Part shown: piece after piece, positions 1-63,409 of the stretch
Layout of the letters: the number at the start of each line of letters is the position of its first letter
Numbering within the stretch: position 1 is the stretch's first letter
Origin: a virus
Lineage: Duplodnaviria > Caudoviricetes
Reading direction: 5' to 3' (one strand)
Virus record (IMG/VR): IMGVR_UViG_3300033125_000241
Span: 1 to 63,409 of that record
DNA: 63,409 nucleotides
Translations under genes and position numbers: made by a program
Notes under the pieces: model-generated
What the model saw: only the letters and a program-made list of their open reading frames with translations
The model's database searches: none
What the model was told of the DNA's origin: nothing

Positions 1-2
1 CC

Positions 3-11367: not shown

Positions 11368-11430
11368 GTTCTCAAGTGGCTGAGTGGTTAAGGCATGATA
11401 GTCGATGGTTCGAATCCATCCTTGAGAACA
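11368..11430 (+). ncRNA. tRNA-like RNA lacking an anticodon arm
   Basis: GTTCTCAAG/CTTGAGAAC stem, TGGCTGAGTGGTTAAGGC D arm, GATGG-TTCGAAT-CCATC T arm, only 9 nt between D and T arms. Confidence 0.75.
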
Positions 11431-16696: not shown

Positions 16697-17903
16697 CTTA
16701 GCTAATAGAGCTGTTAATATACTTAAAGATAAAAAAATAGTATACCTATCATTGGCCGTACGCGTTGGTAAGACCTTGACGGCTTTAGAAACAGCTAAAC
16801 TATATGGAGCTAAACGAGTTCTATTCTTAACAAAAAAGAAGGCTATATCATCAATACAAAATGACTATAAGAATTTCGGCTATGAATTTGAATTGACAGT
16901 CATAAATGACGAGTCAATGCATAAATTAGAAGATACAGACTACGACTTAGTAATTCATGACGAGCACCATAGATTCGGAGCATTCCCAAAGCCAGGACTA
17001 GCAACAAAGACTTTTAGAGATATGTTTTGTGATGTACCAATGATATTCTTGTCAGGTACAATGACACCAGAGTCATACAGCCAAGTATACCATCAGTTTT
17101 GGGTGTCTATCTATAGTCCATTCAAACATTATGCAAACTTCTACAGGTGGGCTGATGATTATGTTAACAAGTTTCAGAAAAAAATTAATGGGTTTTTAGT
17201 TAATGACTACTCGAAAGGAAATGAGTTGAAGATAATGGCTGCTATTGCACCTTATGTAATTACATTCACACAGCAACAAGCAGGATTCTCTACTGAGATT
17301 GAGGAAGAAGTATTGCATATCGCGATGAGCGATAAGACAAAGATGATTGTGAAGAAGCTCGAAAAAGATTTGGTGGTTGAAGGCAAGGATGAAGTTATAT
17401 TGGCAGACACTCCAGTTAAACTAATGCAAAAACTGCATCAGTTATGGAGTGGTACTGTCAAGTTTGAGAGTGGTAATAGTATGGTTATTGATACCACTAA
17501 GGCTGAGTTTATCAAGTCGCAATTTGCGACATCAAAGATAGGCATATTCTACAAGTTTAAAGAAGAGTTAAACGCACTAAAGCAAGTGTTGGGTGATAGC
17601 TTAACTACAGAGCTTGATAAGTTTGACAATGAGGACTTTCAGTTTATAGCTTTACAAATAGTATCTGGAAGAGAAGGAATTTCTCTTAAAAATGCTGACT
17701 ATGTAGTATTCTATAACATTGACTTTAGTGCTACATCATATTGGCAGGCACGTGATCGTATGACTACTATGGATAGGAATTTCAATAAGGTATACTGGTT
17801 ATTCAGTGAAGGTGGTATTGAGGACAAAATATACAAAGCTGTCAAGGCAAAGAAAAAATATACTGTTAATATATTTAAGAAAGATTATGACAAGAAGGAC
17901 TAA
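16668..17903 (+). CDS. SF2 (SNF2-like) helicase
   Basis: LRSYQ, VRVGKT, DEHH, LSGT, SGREGISL, QARDR. Confidence 0.88.
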   Translation: MLELRSYQVDLANRAVNILKDKKIVYLSLAVRVGKTLTALETAKLYGAKRVLFLTKKKAISSIQNDYKNFGYEFELTVINDESMHKLEDTDYDLVIHDEHHRFGAFPKPGLATKTFRDMFCDVPMIFLSGTMTPESYSQVYHQFWVSIYSPFKHYANFYRWADDYVNKFQKKINGFLVNDYSKGNELKIMAAIAPYVITFTQQQAGFSTEIEEEVLHIAMSDKTKMIVKKLEKDLVVEGKDEVILADTPVKLMQKLHQLWSGTVKFESGNSMVIDTTKAEFIKSQFATSKIGIFYKFKEELNALKQVLGDSLTTELDKFDNEDFQFIALQIVSGREGISLKNADYVVFYNIDFSATSYWQARDRMTTMDRNFNKVYWLFSEGGIEDKIYKAVKAKKKYTVNIFKKDYDKKD

Positions 17904-20743: not shown

Positions 20744-20907
20744 TGATAACAGTTGAGGAAATGATAGCTGTTGTAGAAAACTACATCTACGAAAAGAAAA
20801 AAGTAAGGGTGCGCATCGAACTACGATACCACCCTTTCCTTATTCATTCTGACCTCAGCAAACTTAATTACTGTTACGGCATTGCTTTAGATTATTTTAA
20901 AATCTGA
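20743..20907 (+). CDS. hypothetical protein (54 aa, not in ORF track); last gene of the + arm
   Basis: TGATG coupling; converges on the giant gene. Confidence 0.55.
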   Translation: MITVEEMIAVVENYIYEKKKVRVRIELRYHPFLIHSDLSKLNYCYGIALDYFKI

Positions 20908-23900
20908 TCGGCTGTCTTTCCGTCTTTGATATCTATTATATCTCTAATACCTGGCTCACCTATAGCCTTCATAACTTTTATGTACTCCCTTCCTTGACGT
21001 TCTGTCAAACCGCCATTTCTTTCTATGAACTCTATTTCGGAAATGGCTGTTTCGGATTCCTTTTTATTTTTTATCAATTCAACTTCCCAAGATTTAAGAT
21101 TACGTCCTAGTTCTTTTTGTACAGCATCATATCGCTCGTACTGTTTTTCTGTTACTGCTTTTTTCTTAATTCTATTAACGTAGTTTCTCCCTATAGATCC
21201 TATATCTTTTGGTAATAGACCAGTAGAGTATGCTACCATAAATGGAACAGCATATGCGACTTTTTTACGATCTGACTCTAAAAGCTTTTTAGTAGTTTCT
21301 CTTCCTTGATACTCATCAGTAAATTCTCCTGTTGTGGCTAGTTTACCTATTTCACCTAACTCCTGGTAAGTACTTCCTGCTATACCAATCATACCATAAC
21401 TTCTATCAAATTCATCTTCAAAAACTTGATATTTTGCTTCTTCTTTTATTTTATTAATATATTCCGCTTCAGTTTTTTCATCCATTGGATATTCACCTTT
21501 TAACTCTAGTACTTTATTTCTGCTATTAACAGCATCTTTTATTTCCTTATCACTCATCCAAGGATACTGAGCTAATGATTGATTTAATCCCCAAGTAGTT
21601 AAACCATCCATCATAGGGATTGGAGAAACAATATCATTAACAATACTTTTTACTGGGTACTTAGTAGCATTAATTAATTTTTTCTTTTTTGTTTCTTCAT
21701 CATCATCGTCACCAAGTAATGATGCTGCAATCATATCATATAATCTTCTTATACCAAATCCAATCATCTGATATGCAGCTAATTCAGCTCCTAAGCCAGC
21801 TAATGATCTAAACGCAATAATTTTATCTTCTTTAGTTGCTGTCTTACTTGCTATTGTCTGAAAGTCGTTATACATACGAGCTTTTTGATTCAAGATAAAT
21901 GATGCAAATGGAAGAACTATTTTTCTAGCTATCTGTTTTATTGGATCATCACTAGATAAGAACTCACCTGCTAGCATAGGATCAGATATGTTTTGCTGTC
22001 TATCAATCATAGCTTGAGCATATTCAGCAGCTTCCATATCCATTTTATGTGTAGTCCAATCAATATCAGTACTTATACCTCTACGTTTTAAATTTTGTAG
22101 GTAGTAAGATTTAAATGATGACCTAGCAACAAAAACATCAGGTTTAACCAAGAATTGCTTTAAGTACCATTGGTTTAAGTCAGTAACAGACTTTAATGCT
22201 TCTTGAACTCCAGTTCCTTTCATGTCAATTTTTCTATCTATTGATTGAACTGTTGATTGTGATTCAAGACCACGATTTGAAATTGGAAGTCCTGATTCAT
22301 TTAGCCAAGCGTTAAAATCAGCTCCAGCAAAATCAAACCTACCAGCATTCACAACAGTGTTTACCATTACTGGAATTGTCTGACTTACAGCTTGATTAAT
22401 ACCACCAAGAGCCTTACCTACTCCAAGAGCTGTGGCAAAATTAACAAGTTTGTTAAGGTATTGAATTGTATCTGATGGAACAACATTTTTACCTTTTGCT
22501 CTTCTTATATAACTATTAATTCTCTTAGTCAATATTGCTCTATCCTCAGACTCAGGAATTAATTTCTTGAATGATTTTGAATTAATAAAACCATCAACTT
22601 GACGAATAGCAGAAGCAGTATTAATATCAGTAAGTGCCGACTTTAATGCCTTTGAATTATTTGTGTCGAAATCAAGACTAATATATCTACCATCAGGCAT
22701 TACATTTGGTCTTGTTGTTTCCATAAGAACACCAGTCTTATTTTTATCAGTATAATCTATAGATATTGCAAAAGCACCATTTCTTTCAACAGCTCCTTCA
22801 TCAAGTGATTGATTTTCTGAAGATAACCTTTTGTACTTATCTGGTGTATAGTTTAAATCGCTACCAAGTTGAGTGTTGTATACAGACAAACTTATGTCTG
22901 ATAAATCAGAATAGTGTTGAGACCATTGATTAACCCACCAATTTACAGCATCTAAATTATTTTTTGAGGCATTTGAATTAATCACATCCATATCCATTTC
23001 TGATACACCTAGCTTATCATAAATCTTTTGATATAGTTCCCCCATTTTTTGTTCTTTAGAATCACCATCTTCAATTAATTTATTGATAGATTCTTGTATC
23101 ATTCTAACTCTTCTTTCAAACTCTGCTTTCATTTCAGTTGGACTTCCAATCAAGTTTCTTTTCAAGAATGCAAGCATACCTCTTTCGTATACATTCTCAG
23201 CGTCCATGAAATCTTTATTCATGACATATTTACCAAGAGCGTTTTTTGTAGAGTAAAAAGGTTGTTTTGAATATTGATCTAAAATATCATTATGTTGTCT
23301 ATTGGCTTTATTAACTCCATTGATTAATTTAATGAGGCCCATCTTATTCATCATATTTAATGAATTAGTTACACCACCAAACATCTTTTCCATTAACATC
23401 GGAAGAGAGAATAATTGCTCACTATATATTTTACCAACATAATTACTAAAGAACAATCTTAATGACTTAGCTTTCTTTCCTCTAGCAACAAGTGATTTTG
23501 CATTTACAGCTCCCTCATAAGAACTAACTGCTGCCTCAAGACCACTTGTTATTTGATTAGTTATAAAATTCTCTAAGCTTTCAACAATTTTGATTGCATC
23601 TCTTACTGACATTTCATTAAGGTCAATATTCAATGCTCTCTTAATTAGTTCTTTTTGCTTTTCATCAAATGTTATTTCCTCACCAGTCATTGGATCGATA
23701 CCTGTCTTTAACATTGTATCAAGTATTGATGACATAATTCCAAACCTGCCATTTAAGTAATCTTTGACATACTTTTCTTTTTCAGTTGTATCCATTTGAC
23801 TAGTTGGATCTTTCAATGCATTGATTACATCTTGCATGTCTTTCAATGACATCTCATTATCTAAGAAATCATAAGTAGCTAAAAGCTCTTGTTTTTGTAT

Positions 23901-26900
23901 ATCTTCTTGTCTTGTAATTTCTTGATTTGTATACTCAGAAACTTCAGCAATATTTGCAGCTTCTTTCATTACAACATCAAGTCCTTTTACTCGTGAAGGC
24001 TTAACAGCATTTGCAACTTTCTCAGCCATTGCAATATACGTATCAATGTCATCAACCATTGACGGATCAATATTTGCAAACTCCTTAGCCATACCCACTA
24101 CTTCAGCCTGGTTGTCAGTCTTTAATGCCTTACGGATTGATTTTCGTAATTTGAATGCATCGTCTAATCTTTGTTGGTAGTCAGACCTTTCAAATACCTT
24201 AGCAGCATAGTTAACAAATCTCTCAACCAATACCGGATTATCTAAGTTAAGGTTGCTAATTCTTTTAATTAGAACACCTGCTTGAGCGGCTTTAATCTTA
24301 CCAAGTTTAACCATACCACTAATAGCAGCAGCAAGAGCTTTTCTTTTAGCATTTAAATCACCCTTAGCTTCACGAGCAGCTTTTGCCTGCAATCTAAGTT
24401 CATTTTTATATGCTGTCATTTCATTTACAGTAACCTTCTTAGGTTTTGGCTTTCCTAATATCTTAGCAACTGATGGAGCTTTCTTGAGTTTCTCACCAAA
24501 GAACTCTTTTAATTCTCTCTCGGCATTTTCTCTTTGTGTATCATCAGTATTTTTATACCAATCTGACTTTCTTAAATCATTTAATGCAGCATCAACACCT
24601 TGCTTATGTGGATTGCCTCTTTGGTCTACTGACAGTATATATTTCTCTTTTGCTTTTTGTATTGCTTCTTGTTGTGTGTTGGCCTTTTGGAATTTGATAT
24701 TACGTGTCTCAGTACTGAATGTACCTACATTCTCAGTGGCTGACTTTATAGCTTTTGGATTCTTAGTAATGAATACATCTGACTCTATACCTCCATCTCG
24801 TTCAGACAATGGAATAGAATCTAATGTATTTTTTACAATGACTCCATCGTATTTATTTTCATCATAAGATATTTCTTCAGAATTATCTAGTAGGTCACCA
24901 TTAGCATCTATTTCAAATGGATTTCGGATGTTGAGGAATACCTTATACATTTCTCCACCAACATAAGGATTGAATTCTATTCCCTTTGATTTTAAGAAAT
25001 CGACAACTTTACCCATATAACCAAATGAATCATAAGAGTTAGATGGTTGGCTATCATTTTCTATATCTTTTAAAAAGTCTTCATATGACTCGTCATCTTC
25101 ACCTGTAATTTCACCTCCTTTTCGGAAGTGTCTAGTTTTCATAACGGCATCATTAAATTCAACCATTTCATCATAACTCATAGATGAAACAATTTTTGTT
25201 AGCTCGTCAATATTTGGTTCTTGAGAAATAAATTGGAATGTCTTAGCTACATTTTCGTTGTTAGTGAAAAAGAATCCCATTTTAGTTATATCTGCGCCTG
25301 TTGCACCACCTAGATATTCTGTTTTAAATTCATCAAAACCACCTTTGCTACCATGGTATGTCATTAACGGCTCACCATTTTCATCAACTACTTTACTTGC
25401 GTTAACAGGGTCGTTCTCCCAATCTCCAAACCATTTCTTGAACTCAGGTGTTCTTACTTGATTCCATTGCTTATCATTCAGATTGGATGGCTTACCATTA
25501 GGTGCAGTCTTTTGGAATTTAGGTTTTGATGGTTTATTACCTATTGATATTTCAATGTCTGATTCAGAAAGTAAGTTTTCTTCTATTGAAGATTTAAGAC
25601 GCTCTAATGATAATACTTTATCAGTTTTTTTATTTATTAAAGATCTTCTAAATTCAAAATCACTATCTGAGTTAGTAATTTTTCTTGATTGTTTTTCAAG
25701 ATCTTCTTTTAATAAATCTAATCTATAATTTATTGATTTTAAAAGACTATCTCTTAACTCTGTTATTTTTTTGTTTTTACCTCCAAGAAAATCAGGAATA
25801 TTTTTATCTTTAATATCAGCTAAATATTCAAAAGGTATACCTAATTCTTTAAATAAATCGGTAAAATCCTGCCCATAAATATTAATTTTTGATTCTTTCG
25901 TTTCTCCCTTTTGAAATTTAGGTTTTCCTTTCAACTCTAATCCCATTGTAGATACACCAGAAGTTGGGAATAATTTCTTTTGTCTATCCTTAGATATAGT
26001 CTCACCTGTTTCAGGATCTATAAAAACATCAGCCCAATTTTGACGATCTTGTAATATATGAATTTTTACTTTATTGTTTTTATTTTCAGATTGAATAGCT
26101 TTTGGATATGATTCATGTTTATCAGAATCTACAGGCTCTACTTTACCATTAAGTTCAACTATAGCATAAACTTGACCTCCATTTTTTCTATTAATATCTT
26201 CTTTTAATAAAGGTTCAGTAAACATCTCAGATATAGCTTGAGTCATATTTGCAGCTGATATGCTTATTTTACCAGTCTTAGATATTCCCTTGAAGTATTT
26301 ATTTTGAATACCTTCTGAAAACAACTTTCCAAATTGTTCAACAGATTTAGGATTTGATTTTATAATATTAGCAGCTTTTCTTATTAATTCTTCAGCAAAA
26401 GTTTTTCTATCCTCAAATGATGTGATATCTGGATTTAATAATTCCTTTATTCTTGATGTTACAGTATCAATAGAATCCGATTTGTTTATTTTAAATTTAG
26501 TTCCTAAACCAACAATTTTTATTTTATATTGCTTATTTCCTTTTTTGTCAAGAACAGGCACTCCATCTTTCTTTATTAATGTCTTTTTTTCTTCTGTGGC
26601 ATTTGCAGCACTATTAAGTATTGTTTTTAACTGAGTTGGAGTTATAGAGAAGTTTTTATCAAATGCTTTAGATGAAAAGAAATCTAATACTGCATTGGCC
26701 ATAGTAGTACTTGACATCAACTTGTCATATGGAGCTGAAGTTAAAGCCATGTATATAGTACCATTGTTTTGCTCAAATACCTTATTTAAATCTTCAGCCA
26801 TTTTTTTAGCTGTATCTTTTGTACTAGCCCAAAAATATCCATCATCATGGAATTTAATTGGATAGAATACACCACCTTTACCTTCAACTAATAGCTCTCC

Positions 26901-29900
26901 ATCTTTGTATATCGTTCCGGAGAAAGCTGCATCAGGTTGGTGTAAGAATATAATTTTACCTGCAAAGTCAGATAAGTTTTTGTCATCAGTTATATAACCT
27001 TCTTTTTTTAATTGGTCGAATTTTTCTCCATTTTTGTCATATACAAATGTCAATTTAGATAATGGGTCAGAGAAGTCAGCTTGGAATTTTACCTTACCTG
27101 TCTTTTTAACTTCTTCAGTTTTAATCTCTTGTCCAGTTCTAATTGATTTTGTTAAGCTGTTCATGAAGTCAACAGCATTCTTAGCATTTGCTGCTGCTGA
27201 GAACACAGTTGGTAAACCAAGTTTTTGAGCTAACTTATTAATTAAGTTCTTGAATTGTTGAAACTTAGTTGTAGTTAACTCTTGTTGTGCTTCAGCCATG
27301 ATACCACCAAGTTCAGCTATATATTCTTCAGCCGTTTCTGATGCATCATATCCTGATATAAAATTATCTAATCTTTGTTTTAATGCTTTATCTGATACAA
27401 CTGATTTTAAACCTTTAGCTAAATCAAGCATTGCGCCTGACTCAACACCTTTAACAACAAGAGCATGATGCATAGCTTCATGTAACATTGTTACAACGTC
27501 AGCACCATTCTCTAAGTTTATATGAATCTCTCCATCCACATAAGCACCTTTAGAACCTTCAGAAGATTTCTCACCTATACCTTGATCAAAATCAGCTGTA
27601 GTGTTATGCACATATACTTTAACACCTGGTAATGCTTTCATTGCTAACTTAGCAGCAGTATAAATTTTCTGAGCTACAGGAGTAGTCTGCTGAGCTCTTA
27701 ACTGATCAACATTCTCTGAAGTAACCAAGTTCTTTTGTGGTGTCTGTCTAACGGTTGGTTGAGCAGCAGGTTGAGCAACAGGTGCTTGTTGAACTACAGG
27801 CGCAGCTTTAACGTTAGGCACTTTTGTAGATACAAGCGTGTTACCATCTAACTTAAATTTATAAGTTTTATTATTGGCTTTATCATAAATGGTTACCTCA
27901 TCATTTTTCTTTAAGTAATCAATTATTGACTTATAGAAAGGAGTAAAGTCATCCTTAACACTTGTGTCACTTAAATCAGTATATGTAACCTCGTCAGTGT
28001 TATTTGGATTGGTATTTTTACCTAGTTGAACTAATGTTCTTTCAGCATTTGCTAGCTGAGGTAATATCTCTTTAGCCTTAGCATCTTCCTCAGTAGCTGT
28101 TAGTACATCGTAATCATTCTTTAAATCATTCAATATATCATCTTCAATAGGACTTCTATCTTGCTTTGACTCATAAGAATCTATACTTTCTTTAATAGAT
28201 TGTCTAGCATATTCAATTGGATTCTCATCCATTTTTTTCTGCTCTGTCTCACTTAATAAAGACCTTCTTCTATCAATTACTTCTTGGACTGCTTTACTTT
28301 CTTGGGCAGCGACTTGAGGTTCTGCTTGGGATTCTCCTTGCGCCACTTCTCTGCCAACTGCGGCTTCTGGCTGTACAGGAACTTCACCTGTTGTTTCGAC
28401 TTGAACGGCATTTTTACTTATTGTTTTTAGTTCTTCATTAATCTCGTTTATTCTCTCTGTCTGAGCAGTAACGAGAGCAGGGTCTTTCCCTTGTATTTCT
28501 TTAGTTAATCTATTTTTTTCTGATAGCATATTAACAGCATCAATTTGATCCTGCGCATTTAATTCTTCTGGTATTGATTCCATAACGGAAGTCAATTCAT
28601 TCATTGCATCAAGTCTTTCTTGAGCTTCTGATTTTGTAAGGTTACCTTTCAACATTTCTGTCTTTAGGTTACTTACAATTAATTTTTTGAATTCACTATC
28701 TTGAGATATTTCTTTTAAGTAATCTAAATCCTTTTCATCATAAAGCGATATGTTACCATTTTTTAGTCCAGATGCTACAGTTGAAAATGTTCCGATTGTT
28801 GCACCACCAATAGCTTCTGCTAAACCATCTTCAAGGACAGTAGAAAATACATCTCCAACTGTGTCAGGAGTTGCAAAAAATTCACCGCCACTTAGATTCT
28901 GAACTTCCTCTTCAGTCATTCCTGACTGTTTCACTTTATTATATAATGATTTGAGGCCAACATCTAAAACCAATGATTGAGTAGCACCAGTTTCAAATTC
29001 AGCTATTGCACCATTAGCAATTTTTAACAATCCTTTTCCTATTAAGCTCTTGACTTCTTTATCTATTATAGACTGTAGTACTTCACGAGTAGCATTCTTT
29101 GGCATTTTGCTTATTGATTTTGCCAATATATTTTTAACTACACCACCTGCAAATGACTCACCTTTAACTACATTCTTTAAACCATAGTTCTCAAGAACAC
29201 CCATTACTAATGAATACGGTACAGATATCATCGCTCTTTCTCCTACTGATGATGTAGCAAAGTCAGGATCATCTAACATCTCATCTTCAATTGAACTATA
29301 TGATTGAGCAGCGAGGCCAGTAAAGCTAGCAGTTGGATTAATTAATGATAATAACATTGCAGGAGTTGACTCAGCTACTCCATATATAGCTTTTTCAAAA
29401 AATCCTCTATCAGCAGACTTCATATATTCTTTAGTAGTCTGATCTGCACCAATTGCATCTACTAAAACTTTTCTTGACTCTGACTTAAAATCTTTTAATC
29501 TTTCATTTACTAATAAATTTTTTGTTTGTTCTCTTGAATAACCCTTGTTTTTATAAAATTGCTTTTCTTCAGGAGATAATTTATCATAATCATCAGATGC
29601 TTGTGCACCTTGAACAGATATAGCAAGAGTTGCTGGAGCTTCAACAATAGCTTTAGAAAATCCTGTTAAAAATGAATTAACTATACCACCTCCAAAACTA
29701 CCAGCTTTTGCTTTTTCAGTAACATATTTACCTGCTATAACATTTAATTTCTTTTGATTCTTTTGAATTGATTTACCTGATGACATTAAAAAATCAGCTC
29801 TAGTACTTAATGACTCAGCTTGTTCATCCAACATTTTTTTAGTTTGATCAAATTCTTCTTGTGACATTTGACCCGACTGTGATTTTTTATTGAATGTTTC

Positions 29901-31361
29901 AATTGATTGAGCATACTTTTTTTGATCGTTAGCTAGTTTTTTAGCAGCATTATCTAAATCATTTAACTGCATGCTATAATTCTTTACTTGGTCTTGAATT
30001 ACATCATCAGTTAAGAATGCAGTTATTTTTGATTTAATATTTTTTTGAGCAGCTTTGTTTCCTGATGCTTTAGCTGATTGTAGTTCAGTATATAATAAAT
30101 CTATCCTAGCATCTCTAGCTCCAAACTCTTCTTTCTTTTTATTTTTATAAATTTTATATGTTTCTGAATTATAGAATTTTTCTAAATCTTTTATTCCTAA
30201 ACTTGGCTTAATAGATTTATTAATTTGTTCAGTCATTTCATCAAAAGATAAATTAGAGAACTTATCCTTATACTCATCAGATAATACATATTTTACAGTC
30301 TCTGGACGTATAATGAAATTTTTTGTTTTATTAGCTTCATCAAAATTAATAAAGCCACTATTTAATGTTTTTATTTTATTTTCTAATTCTATCGCAGTAT
30401 TGCTTTTTTCTTTAGATGCATTCTGCTCTAAAAAGTTTCTAAGCTTTAAAGCTTCCTCCGGGTTCTTCTCATCAAAACCAACTGTTAATTCTTTTGATTT
30501 ATCTTTATTATATACAGTTACATAGTCAGTACCAAATCCAGTTTGCTCAAAAGTGAATCCATATTTACTATATTTTTTAGCTAAAACATCAACAGCGTTC
30601 TCTTCAGTTTTACTGACTAATGACGTATTTATATCTGCAAATTGTAATTTAGGTTCTTGCTTTACTGTTTTTAATTCAGGCTTGTACTTAACATCTTTAC
30701 CATAACGTCTATTCAAAGCACCAACCGAACCTTCGTTTGTTACTGTTGACCATGACATAGCACCGGGTACTTTTCGTTCCCAATTACCATTATTTATTCT
30801 ATACTGGTTGTCTTTTTTCTCTTCATCATAGTTTGAGTAAACCTTATCAATAGGGTCTAGTGAAGCTGTTTTATTGAACTTTTTATTGAGTGTAGTGATT
30901 CTATTTGGATCAGTTATATCTTTATCATATACACTAAATTCCTTACCATTTTTTGTTTCAGTAAATCCATAGTCATACCATTTACCATCATAGTATCTAC
31001 GAATACCCTTGCCAGGATAGTCTAAATATTCACCAGGTAAAGAGTAATTACCTTGCTGATTTGAAGAGACCGATTGCTGTTTTGTCGCCTTGTTTGATCC
31101 ATCCAAAGAAGTAGCTTTTTGTTTTTGTGTTGATTGTGAAACCTCTTTTTTTTTTAATGGCTGACCACCTATCTTTAGTTCGGGAAACTTAGCATTCACA
31201 ACATCATAATCGTAATTATTTTTTTCTGCTGTTGCAACGTAGTCCTTTAATACTTGTTTGTTATATCCTTTCAATTCAGGGAATTTTCCAAATACAGTAT
31301 TCCAATCGTAGTTGTACTTCTGAGCCGTAGCAATGAAGTCTTTTAGAGTCTGTTCATTCAT
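20892..31361 (-). CDS. giant polyvalent internal-virion/ejection protein (zincin HExxH and ART-PolyVal-like domains)
   Basis: 3,489 aa; HEAMHH…AEEY; APNGKPSNL…FKKWFGDW…VVDENGEPL..YHGS…GFFFT…YDGVIV; last gene of the virion operon. Confidence 0.8.
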   Translation of the reverse strand: MNEQTLKDFIATAQKYNYDWNTVFGKFPELKGYNKQVLKDYVATAEKNNYDYDVVNAKFPELKIGGQPLKKKEVSQSTQKQKATSLDGSNKATKQQSVSSNQQGNYSLPGEYLDYPGKGIRRYYDGKWYDYGFTETKNGKEFSVYDKDITDPNRITTLNKKFNKTASLDPIDKVYSNYDEEKKDNQYRINNGNWERKVPGAMSWSTVTNEGSVGALNRRYGKDVKYKPELKTVKQEPKLQFADINTSLVSKTEENAVDVLAKKYSKYGFTFEQTGFGTDYVTVYNKDKSKELTVGFDEKNPEEALKLRNFLEQNASKEKSNTAIELENKIKTLNSGFINFDEANKTKNFIIRPETVKYVLSDEYKDKFSNLSFDEMTEQINKSIKPSLGIKDLEKFYNSETYKIYKNKKKEEFGARDARIDLLYTELQSAKASGNKAAQKNIKSKITAFLTDDVIQDQVKNYSMQLNDLDNAAKKLANDQKKYAQSIETFNKKSQSGQMSQEEFDQTKKMLDEQAESLSTRADFLMSSGKSIQKNQKKLNVIAGKYVTEKAKAGSFGGGIVNSFLTGFSKAIVEAPATLAISVQGAQASDDYDKLSPEEKQFYKNKGYSREQTKNLLVNERLKDFKSESRKVLVDAIGADQTTKEYMKSADRGFFEKAIYGVAESTPAMLLSLINPTASFTGLAAQSYSSIEDEMLDDPDFATSSVGERAMISVPYSLVMGVLENYGLKNVVKGESFAGGVVKNILAKSISKMPKNATREVLQSIIDKEVKSLIGKGLLKIANGAIAEFETGATQSLVLDVGLKSLYNKVKQSGMTEEEVQNLSGGEFFATPDTVGDVFSTVLEDGLAEAIGGATIGTFSTVASGLKNGNISLYDEKDLDYLKEISQDSEFKKLIVSNLKTEMLKGNLTKSEAQERLDAMNELTSVMESIPEELNAQDQIDAVNMLSEKNRLTKEIQGKDPALVTAQTERINEINEELKTISKNAVQVETTGEVPVQPEAAVGREVAQGESQAEPQVAAQESKAVQEVIDRRRSLLSETEQKKMDENPIEYARQSIKESIDSYESKQDRSPIEDDILNDLKNDYDVLTATEEDAKAKEILPQLANAERTLVQLGKNTNPNNTDEVTYTDLSDTSVKDDFTPFYKSIIDYLKKNDEVTIYDKANNKTYKFKLDGNTLVSTKVPNVKAAPVVQQAPVAQPAAQPTVRQTPQKNLVTSENVDQLRAQQTTPVAQKIYTAAKLAMKALPGVKVYVHNTTADFDQGIGEKSSEGSKGAYVDGEIHINLENGADVVTMLHEAMHHALVVKGVESGAMLDLAKGLKSVVSDKALKQRLDNFISGYDASETAEEYIAELGGIMAEAQQELTTTKFQQFKNLINKLAQKLGLPTVFSAAANAKNAVDFMNSLTKSIRTGQEIKTEEVKKTGKVKFQADFSDPLSKLTFVYDKNGEKFDQLKKEGYITDDKNLSDFAGKIIFLHQPDAAFSGTIYKDGELLVEGKGGVFYPIKFHDDGYFWASTKDTAKKMAEDLNKVFEQNNGTIYMALTSAPYDKLMSSTTMANAVLDFFSSKAFDKNFSITPTQLKTILNSAANATEEKKTLIKKDGVPVLDKKGNKQYKIKIVGLGTKFKINKSDSIDTVTSRIKELLNPDITSFEDRKTFAEELIRKAANIIKSNPKSVEQFGKLFSEGIQNKYFKGISKTGKISISAANMTQAISEMFTEPLLKEDINRKNGGQVYAIVELNGKVEPVDSDKHESYPKAIQSENKNNKVKIHILQDRQNWADVFIDPETGETISKDRQKKLFPTSGVSTMGLELKGKPKFQKGETKESKINIYGQDFTDLFKELGIPFEYLADIKDKNIPDFLGGKNKKITELRDSLLKSINYRLDLLKEDLEKQSRKITNSDSDFEFRRSLINKKTDKVLSLERLKSSIEENLLSESDIEISIGNKPSKPKFQKTAPNGKPSNLNDKQWNQVRTPEFKKWFGDWENDPVNASKVVDENGEPLMTYHGSKGGFDEFKTEYLGGATGADITKMGFFFTNNENVAKTFQFISQEPNIDELTKIVSSMSYDEMVEFNDAVMKTRHFRKGGEITGEDDESYEDFLKDIENDSQPSNSYDSFGYMGKVVDFLKSKGIEFNPYVGGEMYKVFLNIRNPFEIDANGDLLDNSEEISYDENKYDGVIVKNTLDSIPLSERDGGIESDVFITKNPKAIKSATENVGTFSTETRNIKFQKANTQQEAIQKAKEKYILSVDQRGNPHKQGVDAALNDLRKSDWYKNTDDTQRENAERELKEFFGEKLKKAPSVAKILGKPKPKKVTVNEMTAYKNELRLQAKAAREAKGDLNAKRKALAAAISGMVKLGKIKAAQAGVLIKRISNLNLDNPVLVERFVNYAAKVFERSDYQQRLDDAFKLRKSIRKALKTDNQAEVVGMAKEFANIDPSMVDDIDTYIAMAEKVANAVKPSRVKGLDVVMKEAANIAEVSEYTNQEITRQEDIQKQELLATYDFLDNEMSLKDMQDVINALKDPTSQMDTTEKEKYVKDYLNGRFGIMSSILDTMLKTGIDPMTGEEITFDEKQKELIKRALNIDLNEMSVRDAIKIVESLENFITNQITSGLEAAVSSYEGAVNAKSLVARGKKAKSLRLFFSNYVGKIYSEQLFSLPMLMEKMFGGVTNSLNMMNKMGLIKLINGVNKANRQHNDILDQYSKQPFYSTKNALGKYVMNKDFMDAENVYERGMLAFLKRNLIGSPTEMKAEFERRVRMIQESINKLIEDGDSKEQKMGELYQKIYDKLGVSEMDMDVINSNASKNNLDAVNWWVNQWSQHYSDLSDISLSVYNTQLGSDLNYTPDKYKRLSSENQSLDEGAVERNGAFAISIDYTDKNKTGVLMETTRPNVMPDGRYISLDFDTNNSKALKSALTDINTASAIRQVDGFINSKSFKKLIPESEDRAILTKRINSYIRRAKGKNVVPSDTIQYLNKLVNFATALGVGKALGGINQAVSQTIPVMVNTVVNAGRFDFAGADFNAWLNESGLPISNRGLESQSTVQSIDRKIDMKGTGVQEALKSVTDLNQWYLKQFLVKPDVFVARSSFKSYYLQNLKRRGISTDIDWTTHKMDMEAAEYAQAMIDRQQNISDPMLAGEFLSSDDPIKQIARKIVLPFASFILNQKARMYNDFQTIASKTATKEDKIIAFRSLAGLGAELAAYQMIGFGIRRLYDMIAASLLGDDDDEETKKKKLINATKYPVKSIVNDIVSPIPMMDGLTTWGLNQSLAQYPWMSDKEIKDAVNSRNKVLELKGEYPMDEKTEAEYINKIKEEAKYQVFEDEFDRSYGMIGIAGSTYQELGEIGKLATTGEFTDEYQGRETTKKLLESDRKKVAYAVPFMVAYSTGLLPKDIGSIGRNYVNRIKKKAVTEKQYERYDAVQKELGRNLKSWEVELIKNKKESETAISEIEFIERNGGLTERQGREYIKVMKAIGEPGIRDIIDIKDGKTADQILK

Positions 31362-31364
31362 ATG

Positions 31365-31372
31365 CAAATATA
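31365..31372 (-). promoter_or_regulatory. -7 promoter element TATATTTG
   Basis: 3 nt before ATG 31361. Confidence 0.6.
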
Positions 31373-61398: not shown

Positions 61399-61749
61399 TT
61401 AAATATTTTTCTTCAATTTGATTCTGTCAATCATACTTATTGGCTTCTCAATCGACTGCTTGCCAGGTCGGCTGACTACCTTCTTGCCCTCAGCTATCGT
61501 AGTAGTCTTTTTTAACTTGCCAGACTTGTCAAACTTCTCAACCTTTAGACTCTTCTCAACTAACGGCTTGCCTCCACGAATAGCCTCGAAATTCTCACCA
61601 GTGATATTCTTGCGGACAACATCACCCCTCTTTACAGCGGTTTTCTTCTCCGTCCAAACAACACCCCTGTAGTTCTCACTCTTGACCATCTTACCTGTCG
61701 ATGGGTCTCTCCGCATAGTCTTGTCAACGACCTTCGTTTCTCTTGGCAT
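61399..61749 (-). CDS. basic hypothetical protein; first gene of the - arm
   Basis: start MPRETKVV. Confidence 0.65.
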   Translation of the reverse strand: MPRETKVVDKTMRRDPSTGKMVKSENYRGVVWTEKKTAVKRGDVVRKNITGENFEAIRGGKPLVEKSLKVEKFDKSGKLKKTTTIAEGKKVVSRPGKQSIEKPISMIDRIKLKKNI

Positions 61750-61900
61750 ATTTATTTTTTGGTAAATGTACGTAATTTTTGGGTAATACCCCCATTCCAC
61801 GAAAAATGTCGCGCGAGGAAAACGATCTGAAAATTGGGTGGGGGGTGTTCGATTTGGTTTTTTTGGCTCAACTTTTCAGCTTTTTGCTAGCTAATCGATC

Positions 61901-61961
61901 TACCTGCCTGCCTGCCAATGAAACCAACATACATATGTACCTACCTACCTACCTACCTACC
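61901..61961. repeat. tetranucleotide repeats (CCTG)3 and (TACC)6
   Basis: direct reading. Confidence 0.85.
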
Positions 61962-62289
61962 TTGTAATATAATTTGCATTATGTTAAATAGAATAGCGCA
62001 CCAATCCGAACGAATGACTGAAAGCCAATTAGCCAAATCGCCATTAAACCAAGTATTATCTAGCGTTTGGGATGAGGGGGTTAGGTCGTATCTACTTTAC
62101 GATTTGCAAAACAATTTTGATCTCATCTATAATTTATTCGTGTAACTATCTAATTCATAACAAGTTAGCTTGTCATATCATTCGAATCATATGTCCCAAC
62201 TAAGTAAAACTACGTAGATCAATCTAAGTGTAAACACGTAATTATATAATCTTTTTGTTGAAAATTGTTGACAATCTAAAAAACTGACG

Positions 62290-62297
62290 TATCTTTG
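62290..62297 (+). promoter_or_regulatory. early promoter TATCTTTG with upstream TTG
   Basis: TAnnTTTG; TTGTTG at 62265-62270. Confidence 0.7.
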
Positions 62298-62517
62298 TTA
62301 TAAGCAAACGAGCTAAAAACAATACTTCAGATGTACGGGTGATGAACTTAGATTGCTGAATGTAGATTGAAACAATAAAACTAGATAGATTGCCTTTCGA
62401 GGATAAACAATTCAGATAGTGGTTTAAAGTAGATTAGTTTTTAGATAACATATTAAAGTTCTTTGATTATCGGCAAGTGAAAAAGATTGCAACAAAAAGA
62501 TAGAACGTAAAATAGCT

Positions 62518-62653
62518 GCTTATATGCTTGTTCTAGAGGTGGAAGACCTTGGTACAATAGACCTAAATTTTCTCTATTGTTTCGATAATATACCAAAGAA
62601 AATTACACAATAAATTTCTAACTTGTGGTAGTTCGATTCTACCTATATAAGCG
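62518..62653 (+). ncRNA. expanded tRNA-like RNA
   Basis: GCTTATATG/TATATAAGC stem, GGTAG-TTCGATT-CTACC T arm, GG-containing D-like loop, oversized anticodon arm. Confidence 0.55.
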
Positions 62654-62673
62654 CGGTGCAAGTTAACAATATA

Positions 62674-62720
62674 GGTGCATTCAGAATGGCTGATTAATGG
62701 AAGCGATATCCAATGCACCA
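62674..62720 (+). ncRNA. minimal tRNA-elbow-like element
   Basis: GGTGCAT/ATGCACC, TCAG-AATGG-CTGA, TGGA-AGCGATA-TCCA. Confidence 0.4.
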
Positions 62721-63341
62721 CTAACCAATTAAACCAATAACCATGAAAGTAGCTGATTTTTTATTAACTGCCATAACTTATTTTATGGGAGCATGCGCAT
62801 TCGTAGGAATCGTAATCGGATTTATTAATGTTGCTCTAGGCAATGTAATTTCATTTTAGCCATGTCAACAAAAATTTTAAAAATTGAGGGATGTTTCGAA
62901 ATTTGGGGATTCTTCTTGAACGGAATGCTAATTAAAACAAGCAAAGTAAAAATACCATTTAGCCATAGACAATGATAAAAGCAATAATCGAATTTTATAC
63001 TCCTTACCACAAAGACATAGTAGTGGTAAATAGAGATTTTAACGACATCAACCACATGAATAACTTCATTAATTATGTCTGCAAGAAATATAAGTATACG
63101 TTAAACGAAATATATTACTAGTCATGTTAGGAACATTTGTATATGTATTATTACTGTATTCAGTAGTAATAACACTAAAGTATTTATCAAAAAAATAGGA
63201 ATCATGGAAATAATAATAATCGGAATTTTAATTCTTTGGACAATCACAATGTTTAGTATTAATTAATTTAAAAATAGAAATTATGAAACGTATGGATAAA
63301 TTACAACGAGCAAGGGAATTTTGGAAAGAAATAAATAGATA

Positions 63342-63397
63342 GGTTAACTGATGATTCCTGAATGGATGAAATGCCGTAGCAATACGGCATATTAACC
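63342..63397 (+). ncRNA. type I hammerhead ribozyme
   Basis: GGTTAA-CTGATGA-stem II-GAAA-TGCCGTA(GCAA)TACGGCA-TA-TTAACC. Confidence 0.85.
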
Positions 63398-63409
63398 AAA
63401 ATAAATTAG

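Follow-up and report, generated by a model that had tools for sequence, protein, structure and literature searches.

A probable type I hammerhead ribozyme directly upstream of a phage gene belongs to a widespread family of phage ribozymes

Inspection of the window, by which we mean the whole 63,409-base phage record analysed here, revealed a complete type I hammerhead at positions 63342–63397 of the + strand, with all consensus core positions present and a U·U at 10.1/11.1 as its sole deviation from the consensus. At a probability of roughly 75%, and judging from its sequence, we consider this element to be a functional type I hammerhead within a + strand operon of small early-type phage genes. 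Hammerheads occur in phage intergenic regions, mostly with unknown roles. The window copy alone adds little; it is the regularities of its family (the spacing to the start codon, stop codons in stem I, arrays, exchange with another RNA and a member in a cultured phage) that make hammerhead function testable.

The window hammerhead is a further member of a widespread phage ribozyme family, whose layout has been in print since 2011, when type I hammerheads in phage DNA were reported (passages of PMC3088659). Reviews (PMC6765202) still call the function of genomic hammerheads in bacteria and phages elusive.

Hammerhead anatomy and predicted fold

All elements that an earlier note on this DNA had picked out, i.e. 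stem I, the core, stem II, the GAA, stem III and the AUA triplet, are present (Table 1). They form three helices round a junction with helix I open, the type I topology; A63371 pairs with T63390 as A15.1–U16.1, and the AUA triplet at the predicted cut puts A63391 at H17, a non-G as hammerheads require. The cut that had been predicted after 63391 is correctly placed by the consensus, and an active element would be expected to cleave at A63391.

Table 1. Coordinates of the hammerhead and of neighbouring features in the window.
Feature	Position	Strand	Basis or remark
Covarying three-way-junction RNA	62674–62719 (also given as 62674–62726)	+	10-sequence alignment
Upstream 19-aa ORF	63283–63342	+	TAG stop (63340–63342) overlaps the first G of the ribozyme
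Unpaired A directly 5′ of stem I	63341	+	Family-invariant, A in 104/104 members
Stem I, 5′ strand GGUUAA (6 bp)	63342–63347	+	Sequence, fold, R2 alignment, covariation
Catalytic core C3 U4 G5 A6 U7 G8 A9 (CTGATGA)	63348–63354	+	Sequence
Stem II, 63355–63358 with 63364–63367 (U63355·U63367, then three pairs)	63355–63367	+	Sequence, R2
Loop II UGAAU	63359–63363	+	Fits family UNAWU
Core G12 A13 A14 (GAA)	63368–63370	+	Invariant in alignments A1 and A3
Stem III, 8 bp, 63371–63378 with 63383–63390 (A15.1–U16.1 plus seven pairs)	63371–63390	+	
Stem III loop GCAA	63379–63382	+	Sequence
A17, predicted cleavage 3′ of this base	63391	+	Consensus position
Stem I, 3′ strand UUAACC; after a cut, the downstream RNA would begin here	63392–63397	+	Sequence, R2
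A-rich leader	63398–63409 and, across the record break, 1–2	+	L002, X7
Downstream gene, 235 aa	3–710	+	PHROG 2554 (function unknown); AUG 14 nt past the end of stem I

Folded as an isolated element, the hammerhead has the three-way junction as its MFE structure (−17.9 kcal/mol, z −3.85), which none of 200 shuffles equalled. It aligned end to end with two covariance models of the family, R1 and R2. The latter was built from 28 family members, with the window and three relatives (L002, L003 and L006) left out, and scored the window hammerhead at 58.5 bits (E 5.5e-14); the next-best R2 match over the 63,409 bases (both strands, filters off) reached 11.0 bits. With filters off, neither model returned a second hammerhead in the window, which holds one copy only.

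At gathering score, Rfam reported no hammerhead in the window, its sole report being a tRNA-like match elsewhere. The Rfam hammerhead search proposed in the earlier note thus came out negative, with RF00163, RF00008, RF02276, RF02275, RF02277 and RF03152 all below their gathering thresholds, and in E-value mode the only hammerhead family to appear was RAGATH-1-hammerhead (RF03152) at 17 bits (E 1.4; gathering score 56.3). Taken by itself, the missing match at gathering score would suit an AT-rich sequence that happens to resemble the hammerhead consensus; given the E of 5.5e-14 with an independent family model and the existence of orthologous copies with compensatory changes, however, we regard the odds of mere chance as negligible. 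Family copies in 14 related loci likewise included none at the gathering score of an Rfam hammerhead, and canonical copies in L071 matched RAGATH-1-hammerhead at 22–24 bits, compared with the gathering score of 56.3. Rfam-based annotation therefore misses these phage ribozymes.

Contiguity across the record ends

The ribozyme lies at one end of the record and the gene that it would serve at the other, and the earlier note had made its reading conditional on the two ends joining. They do: in L002, the last 20 and first 30 bases of the window lie contiguous with one mismatch, and the contig of a relative from run X7 leads from the ribozyme directly to the first codons of gene 1. Two further contigs of 55 and 60 kb (runs X1 and X3), possibly not independent of the record itself, hold the stretch internally and run past the window end, and G001, a relative with terminal repeats, carries two ribozymes mid-record. 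From L002, the X7 and X1/X3 contigs and G001, we conclude that the break at 63409/1 is arbitrary. The ribozyme accordingly precedes the gene at position 3, as had been claimed, yet this gene is the ‘first’ one only through linearisation of the record, as G001 illustrates. The leader of about 20 nt proposed to remain after the cut is exactly 20 nt long (63392–63409 plus bases 1–2) if cleavage occurs there.

A covarying family of phage hammerheads

A pattern search that kept stem I and the core constant retrieved 111 viral stretches, corresponding to 98 unique cores, and R1 produced 165 hits with E ≤ 1 across 100 sources (922,788 bases), many loci having several. Alignment of the 145 distinct rows among the 150 best R1 matches revealed 98.7% of cells to pair, as compared to 26–43% with the partners slid, and changes on both sides in 14 of the 16 modelled pairs. 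All three stems covary, with two-sided changes in five of six pairs of stem I and five of six modelled pairs of stem III. This alignment was fitted to the model; an independent MAFFT alignment (A1), covering stems II and III, yielded 98.4% paired cells (25–41% slid). The consensus pair of stem I was held in 135–145 of the 145 rows per position, a constancy that is inflated because the loci had been collected by the pattern that fixed stem I. The A15.1–U16.1 pair is A–U in all 145 rows, only N7 varies in the core, where it can be U, C or A, and position H17 holds either A or C.

Conservation extends to the periphery. Loop II, considered like the A at −1 in the 104 members with 4 bp in stem II and 5 nt in its loop, follows the consensus UNAWU (U1 in 104/104, A3 in 95/104, U5 in 95/104) and has exactly the window's UGAAU in 11 of them. 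Past stem I, A is found at +1 in 111/118 and at +2 in 101/118 cases, and both are present in the window copy, which carries all family features: the A at −1, a UNAWU loop II and AA at +1/+2. The conserved loop II and the unpaired A's flanking stem I suggest a tertiary contact between helices I and II of the kind found in fast natural hammerheads, for which covariation provides no clear partner. A pseudoknot between loop II and the flanks was considered and rejected, as mutual information did not exceed 0.155 bits and singled out no clear partner.

The exact pattern was found in only five contigs of a prokaryote genome collection, three of the four taxon-named ones being Bacteroidota MAGs. A member from a cultured phage, Flavobacterium phage vB_FspP_elemoA_7-9A (44.1 bits), has a different, compensated stem I and lies 22 nt before the ATG of gp69. 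It occupies 17290–17347 of NC_055852.1 on the − strand, with its cut predicted at GUC|U. Antisense to the family hammerhead of this phage, between co-directional genes, runs an annotated 35-aa ORF, gp68 (NC_055852.1, 17275–17382; L126:976–1083), which is probably a spurious gene call.

Several members occur in arrays, e.g. ten hammerheads within ~4.8 kb of record G003 (L080; 2808–7574) and eight in L119:5576–10953, where they bracket gene after gene; in both arrays ORF stops fall in the first bases of the next ribozyme. The formation of circular or ligated RNAs via identical stem I halves was examined as a possible role and set aside as a remote idea, the window being single-copy and the stem I sequences of array neighbours in L080 non-complementary; a search of the proteins encoded by this phage found no RtcB or RNA_ligase domain. 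In 30 of the 98 unique cores, stem III takes the form of a GC-rich hairpin followed by at least four T, resembling an intrinsic terminator (e.g. L016:4067–4135 and L037:3284–3347), a feature absent from the window copy. The contig L041 contains three hammerheads of this family and, ~400 nt downstream of one of them, a type-P3 twister at Rfam gathering score (L041:6669–6747, 40.3 bits).

The U·U pair and competing folds

G10.1–C11.1 is the most conserved stem pair of hammerheads. In the window, U63355 stands opposite U63367 at this position, so the atypical closing pair of stem II remarked upon in the earlier note is real. Within the family, 10.1/11.1 is G–C in 126 of 145 rows and a non-standard combination in 16; U·U starts stem II in six of the 98 unique cores (with stem II of UUCC/GGAU, UUGC/GCAU and UAGG/CCUU), the remaining pairs of which covary. 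According to passages of PMC3088659, natural hammerheads can begin stem II with U10.1–U11.1, which supports more cleavage than other mismatches. As natural, active hammerheads of this kind are in print there, G10.1–C11.1 is typical rather than obligatory, and the U·U at 10.1/11.1 is a known, tolerated variant, even if it may slow the window ribozyme.

Longer transcripts were predicted to fold differently. In the presence of at least 59 nt of upstream RNA, thermodynamic prediction favoured a competing fold by 2.0 kcal/mol, rising to 10.8 kcal/mol with 218 nt, and the MFE structure predicted for a 187-nt context spanning the junction was not the hammerhead. The 187-nt fold joins the upstream ORF and the AUG of the gene in a helix. 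Across 146 family contexts, flanks paired no better than mismatched partners (−5.23 vs. −5.16 kcal/mol, p 0.34), and this helix was therefore treated as due to chance and rejected; a longer stem I or an enclosing helix fell by the same flank-pairing test (p 0.34).

These observations bear on the possibility that the window copy is decaying or very slow, with the U·U and the competing pairing leaving it mostly uncleaved and serving as a spacer only. The replacement of the most conserved stem pair (G–C in 126/145 rows), the preference for the competing fold by 2.0–10.8 kcal/mol in longer contexts and the patchy presence among close relatives described below all point in this direction. Yet the other core and peripheral positions are intact (A at −1, AA at +1/+2 and a loop II, UGAAU, shared exactly with 11/104 members), U·U is found in at least four sequence contexts with compensated stems (UUCC/GGAU, UUGC/GCAU, UAGG/CCUU) and is the best-tolerated mismatch in the passages of PMC3088659, and the window site scores 58.5 bits with a model that never saw it. 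We therefore consider such decay unlikely and an active hammerhead the better reading of this copy.

Copies at the same site in close relatives

A protein search with the 235-aa gene, which has no Pfam match, identified relatives in 11 viral loci (L001–L011). Four of these (L002, L003, L004 and L006) have a hammerhead in precisely this position before the gene, L004 being identical to L003 at the hammerhead site. Copies in L003 and L006 have a stem III near-identical to that of the window and a stem II of GGAU/AUCC or GUCU/AGAC, respectively; the L002 copy differs in stem III and has two mismatches in stem II. In the relative from run X7, a paired change (C63358>T and G63364>A) has occurred in stem II. 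The hammerhead present at this site in the window, L002, L003 and L006 is absent from directly upstream of the gene in L001 (whose gene is 95% identical), L005 and L011, and no family hammerhead was detected within 3 kb of the gene in L007–L010. As far as these sequence comparisons go, the hammerhead is dispensable at the site before the 235-aa gene. A second site, before a 36-aa gene, carries a hammerhead in L001, L003, L005, L006 and L011 and none in the window, and a third, before a 38/60-aa membrane ORF, has one in L002 and in a relative from run X12. A blastn search of GenBank phage DNA with 62400–63409 found no close relatives.

Ahead of the ribozyme, each close relative has a sequence of its own, and a variable cassette separates a 24-aa ORF from the 235-aa gene (no ORF, or ORFs of 41, 48, 75, 84 or 85+80 aa). 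Moreover, 12 of 13 positions of the window stem II are identical to the other-site copy of L003, while stem III resembles the same-site copies, a mixture that looks like copy exchange. Together with a stem I that is near-constant across unrelated contigs (135–145 of 145 rows), such patterns might be expected of a portable DNA block of ~56 bp whose near-identical ends promote cassette exchange, any RNA activity being incidental. This explanation is nevertheless very improbable in our view: compensatory changes in three stems show selection on RNA pairing, the spacing to the AUG and the co-orientation with genes are RNA-level properties, and the constancy of stem I is inflated by the pattern used to collect the loci.

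Upstream operon and a second structured RNA

Six abutting ORFs of 19–49 aa, two of them hydrophobic, occupy 62743–63342 (+) upstream of the ribozyme, which would thus be internal to an operon; four of the six recur in seven close relatives. The region had been described in the earlier note as an RNA-rich leader. Structured elements are indeed present, but the same stretch also holds the six packed small ORFs. We found no terminator-like site in 61700–63409, and a role of the window stem III as a terminator was discarded on this ground. A candidate promoter near 62290 was not supported by motif enrichment: TAnnTTTG motifs numbered 38 on the + strand against ~42 expected, and sigma-70-like sites nine against 10.1 expected.

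One of the structured elements is a covarying three-way-junction RNA (62674–62719), consisting of a 7-bp outer helix and two hairpins of 3–4 bp, with the conserved loops AAUGR and AGCGAUA. In the alignment of 10 sequences, 99.3% of cells pair (20–58% with partners slid) and two-sided changes are seen in 10 of 15 pairs. Downstream of it come the sequence ACUAACC, which is invariant, then an A-rich leader and the start codon (ATG) of the 38-aa membrane ORF. It was found in the window, five close relatives and five contigs outside the set of gene-1 relatives, and it had no Rfam match at E ≤ 5.

Inspection of the site before the 38/60-aa ORF revealed an exchange: the position occupied by the three-way-junction RNA in the window and five relatives is taken by a hammerhead in L002 and in the relative from run X12, and the same leader follows in either case. 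A swap of hammerhead and structured RNA before one leader would be expected if both were processing signals, and the 62674–62719 RNA may serve as a minimal, tRNA-like substrate for an RNase or as a different signal of this kind. Further upstream, at ~62518–62653 (+), lies a tRNA-like stretch with a canonical T-arm, which is conserved upstream of the three-way junction in L001, L003, L005 and L011. L005 has a plain hairpin at another site.

Spacing to start codons, leaders and stop codons

In 118 of 147 distinct family contexts, the ribozyme is followed after 12–18 nt by an ATG that starts an ORF of 25 aa or more; among 20,000 positions drawn at random from these loci, 4.0% have such an ATG. 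A subclass of 14/147 contexts has a gap of 38–39 nt to the ATG, with short repeated words after the ribozyme (e.g. L016, L048 and L083). Adenine makes up 61% of the family leaders and guanine 3%, and a Shine-Dalgarno-like core is missing from all 118. Leaders of this composition suit hosts without Shine-Dalgarno sequences in their mRNAs: according to PMC6847099, Bacteroidetes mRNAs have none, and secondary structure together with the upstream nucleotides tunes initiation. For the free 3′ product of the window ribozyme, folding predicts no pairing anywhere in the 20-nt leader or the start codon.

Stop codons of upstream ORFs were found inside the ribozyme in 79 of 147 contexts, where stem I offers a TAA, the core offers a TGA and other stops lie further in, and in another 16 contexts, the window included, the stop overlaps the first ribozyme base, giving 95/147 in total (offsets counted: +3, +7, +17 and −2). 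Such overlaps, and the fact that the ribozyme fills the whole gap between the two genes, would also be compatible with a structured intercistronic spacer that does not cut but supplies a stop, blocks read-through or coupling of ribosomes or binds protein, its core being kept for folding. We give this idea little credence: catalytic nucleotides are strictly conserved, with free variation only at N7 and H17 never G, a pattern that marks selection for cleavage, and a plain hairpin, of the kind that L005 has at another site, would suffice for a spacer.

Proposed mechanism

For a self-cleaving hammerhead, the course of events would be as follows. Once transcribed, the 6-bp stem I, the four-position stem II with its U·U start and the 8-bp stem III would fold into the three-way junction, and the RNA would cut itself after A63391 within the + strand operon transcript. 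The upstream product would retain the small ORFs and structured elements, with the stem III hairpin and a 2′,3′-cyclic phosphate at its 3′ end. The downstream product would begin at the 5′-OH of UUAACC and reach the start codon of the 235-aa gene after 14 further, A-rich nucleotides. As a consequence, the two parts of the message might become uncoupled in stability and translation, and the gene might gain a short unstructured leader of the kind used by Shine-Dalgarno-blind Bacteroidota ribosomes.

More generally, and as a tentative suggestion that we think has less than even odds, hammerheads may serve Bacteroidota phages as a means of creating 5′ ends without a promoter, one that is interchangeable with small structured RNAs. 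If so, every cut would make an internal cistron 5′-proximal and give it an A-rich, unstructured 5′-OH leader of 18–24 nt, and the ribozyme would be required for efficient translation initiation of the downstream gene, beyond trimming or stability. Phage hammerheads would then have a defined function, one that would account for the 12–18 nt spacing, the shared leader and the RNA swap, and the interchangeable structured RNAs might be cut by host RNases.

Relation to known hammerheads

Our literature search found no paper on this subfamily or on hammerheads in Flavobacterium phages; the supplementary alignments of PMC3088659 lay outside that search and may include it. The type I hammerheads of Perreault et al. 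2011, as presented in passages of PMC3088659, and the window copy are alike in their junction, which is open at stem I. They have in common a CUGANGA…GAAA core, the A15.1–U16.1 pair, a non-G17 and their location in phage intergenic gaps. The window copy differs from known type I hammerheads in that stem II begins with U·U and that the Rfam hammerhead models fall short, and the family in that stem I is a plain 6-bp helix, with no internal loop or pseudoknot, flanked by A on the 5′ and AA on the 3′ side. RAGATH-1 (RF03152), the best Rfam match, shares the type I topology and the core with the window; its model differs from the family of the window in an additional hairpin upstream and a stem II of one pair.

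Clustered hammerheads in prophages, which flank single genes or short gene blocks (cluster passages of PMC3088659), resemble this family in lying between co-directional small phage genes and in forming arrays, and the role proposed in those passages is the same, namely the conversion of a long transcript into gene-length RNAs. In contrast to these clusters, the window holds a single copy, and the 12–18 nt spacing to the AUG and the stop codons in stem I are family traits that the cluster passages do not state. The haloviruses HF1 and HF2 provide a parallel in position: in the corresponding passages of PMC3088659, their hammerhead (HHphage) lies 13 nt before a start codon, with a 5′ end mapped to within 3 nt of the cut, and like that of the window it sits just before the AUG, within an early polycistronic transcript. 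HHphage differs in its archaeal host and in a core variant with a two-nucleotide insertion, and has no sequence kinship with the window copy.

Type I hammerheads directly preceding ORFs in fungal and plant RNA viruses were proposed in 2026 to have a role in translation (PMC13725137). As in the window, these ribozymes fill a short intergenic gap and cut a few nucleotides before a start codon. They belong to RNA genomes of viruses with eukaryotic hosts, and the authors report no conserved loop–loop contacts, whereas the hammerhead described here has a DNA genome, a bacterial host and a conserved loop II and flanks.

Genome and host

The record (GC ~34%) is linear according to IMG/VR and 100% complete by CheckV estimate. 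Genes on the + strand extend from ~61,900 across the record break to 20,743, and those on the − strand occupy 20,892–61,800; recognisable products are a terminase, a portal, a GroEL-like protein and a primase-helicase. Among 87 GenBank phages matched by the terminase, 68 were Flavobacterium, 15 Cellulophaga, two Tenacibaculum and one Maribacter phages, and one was another Caudoviricetes record. As these matches are mostly to Flavobacterium and Cellulophaga phages, comparison of the terminase very probably makes the host a member of Flavobacteriia, and the phage is probably podovirus-like and infects Flavobacteriia. ARAGORN called no tRNA in the window; at 11370–11428 (+), Rfam gave a tRNA match of 45.1 bits in which the anticodon arm is cut to one position. 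On the − strand, 20892–31367 is taken up by a single ORF of 3,491 aa.
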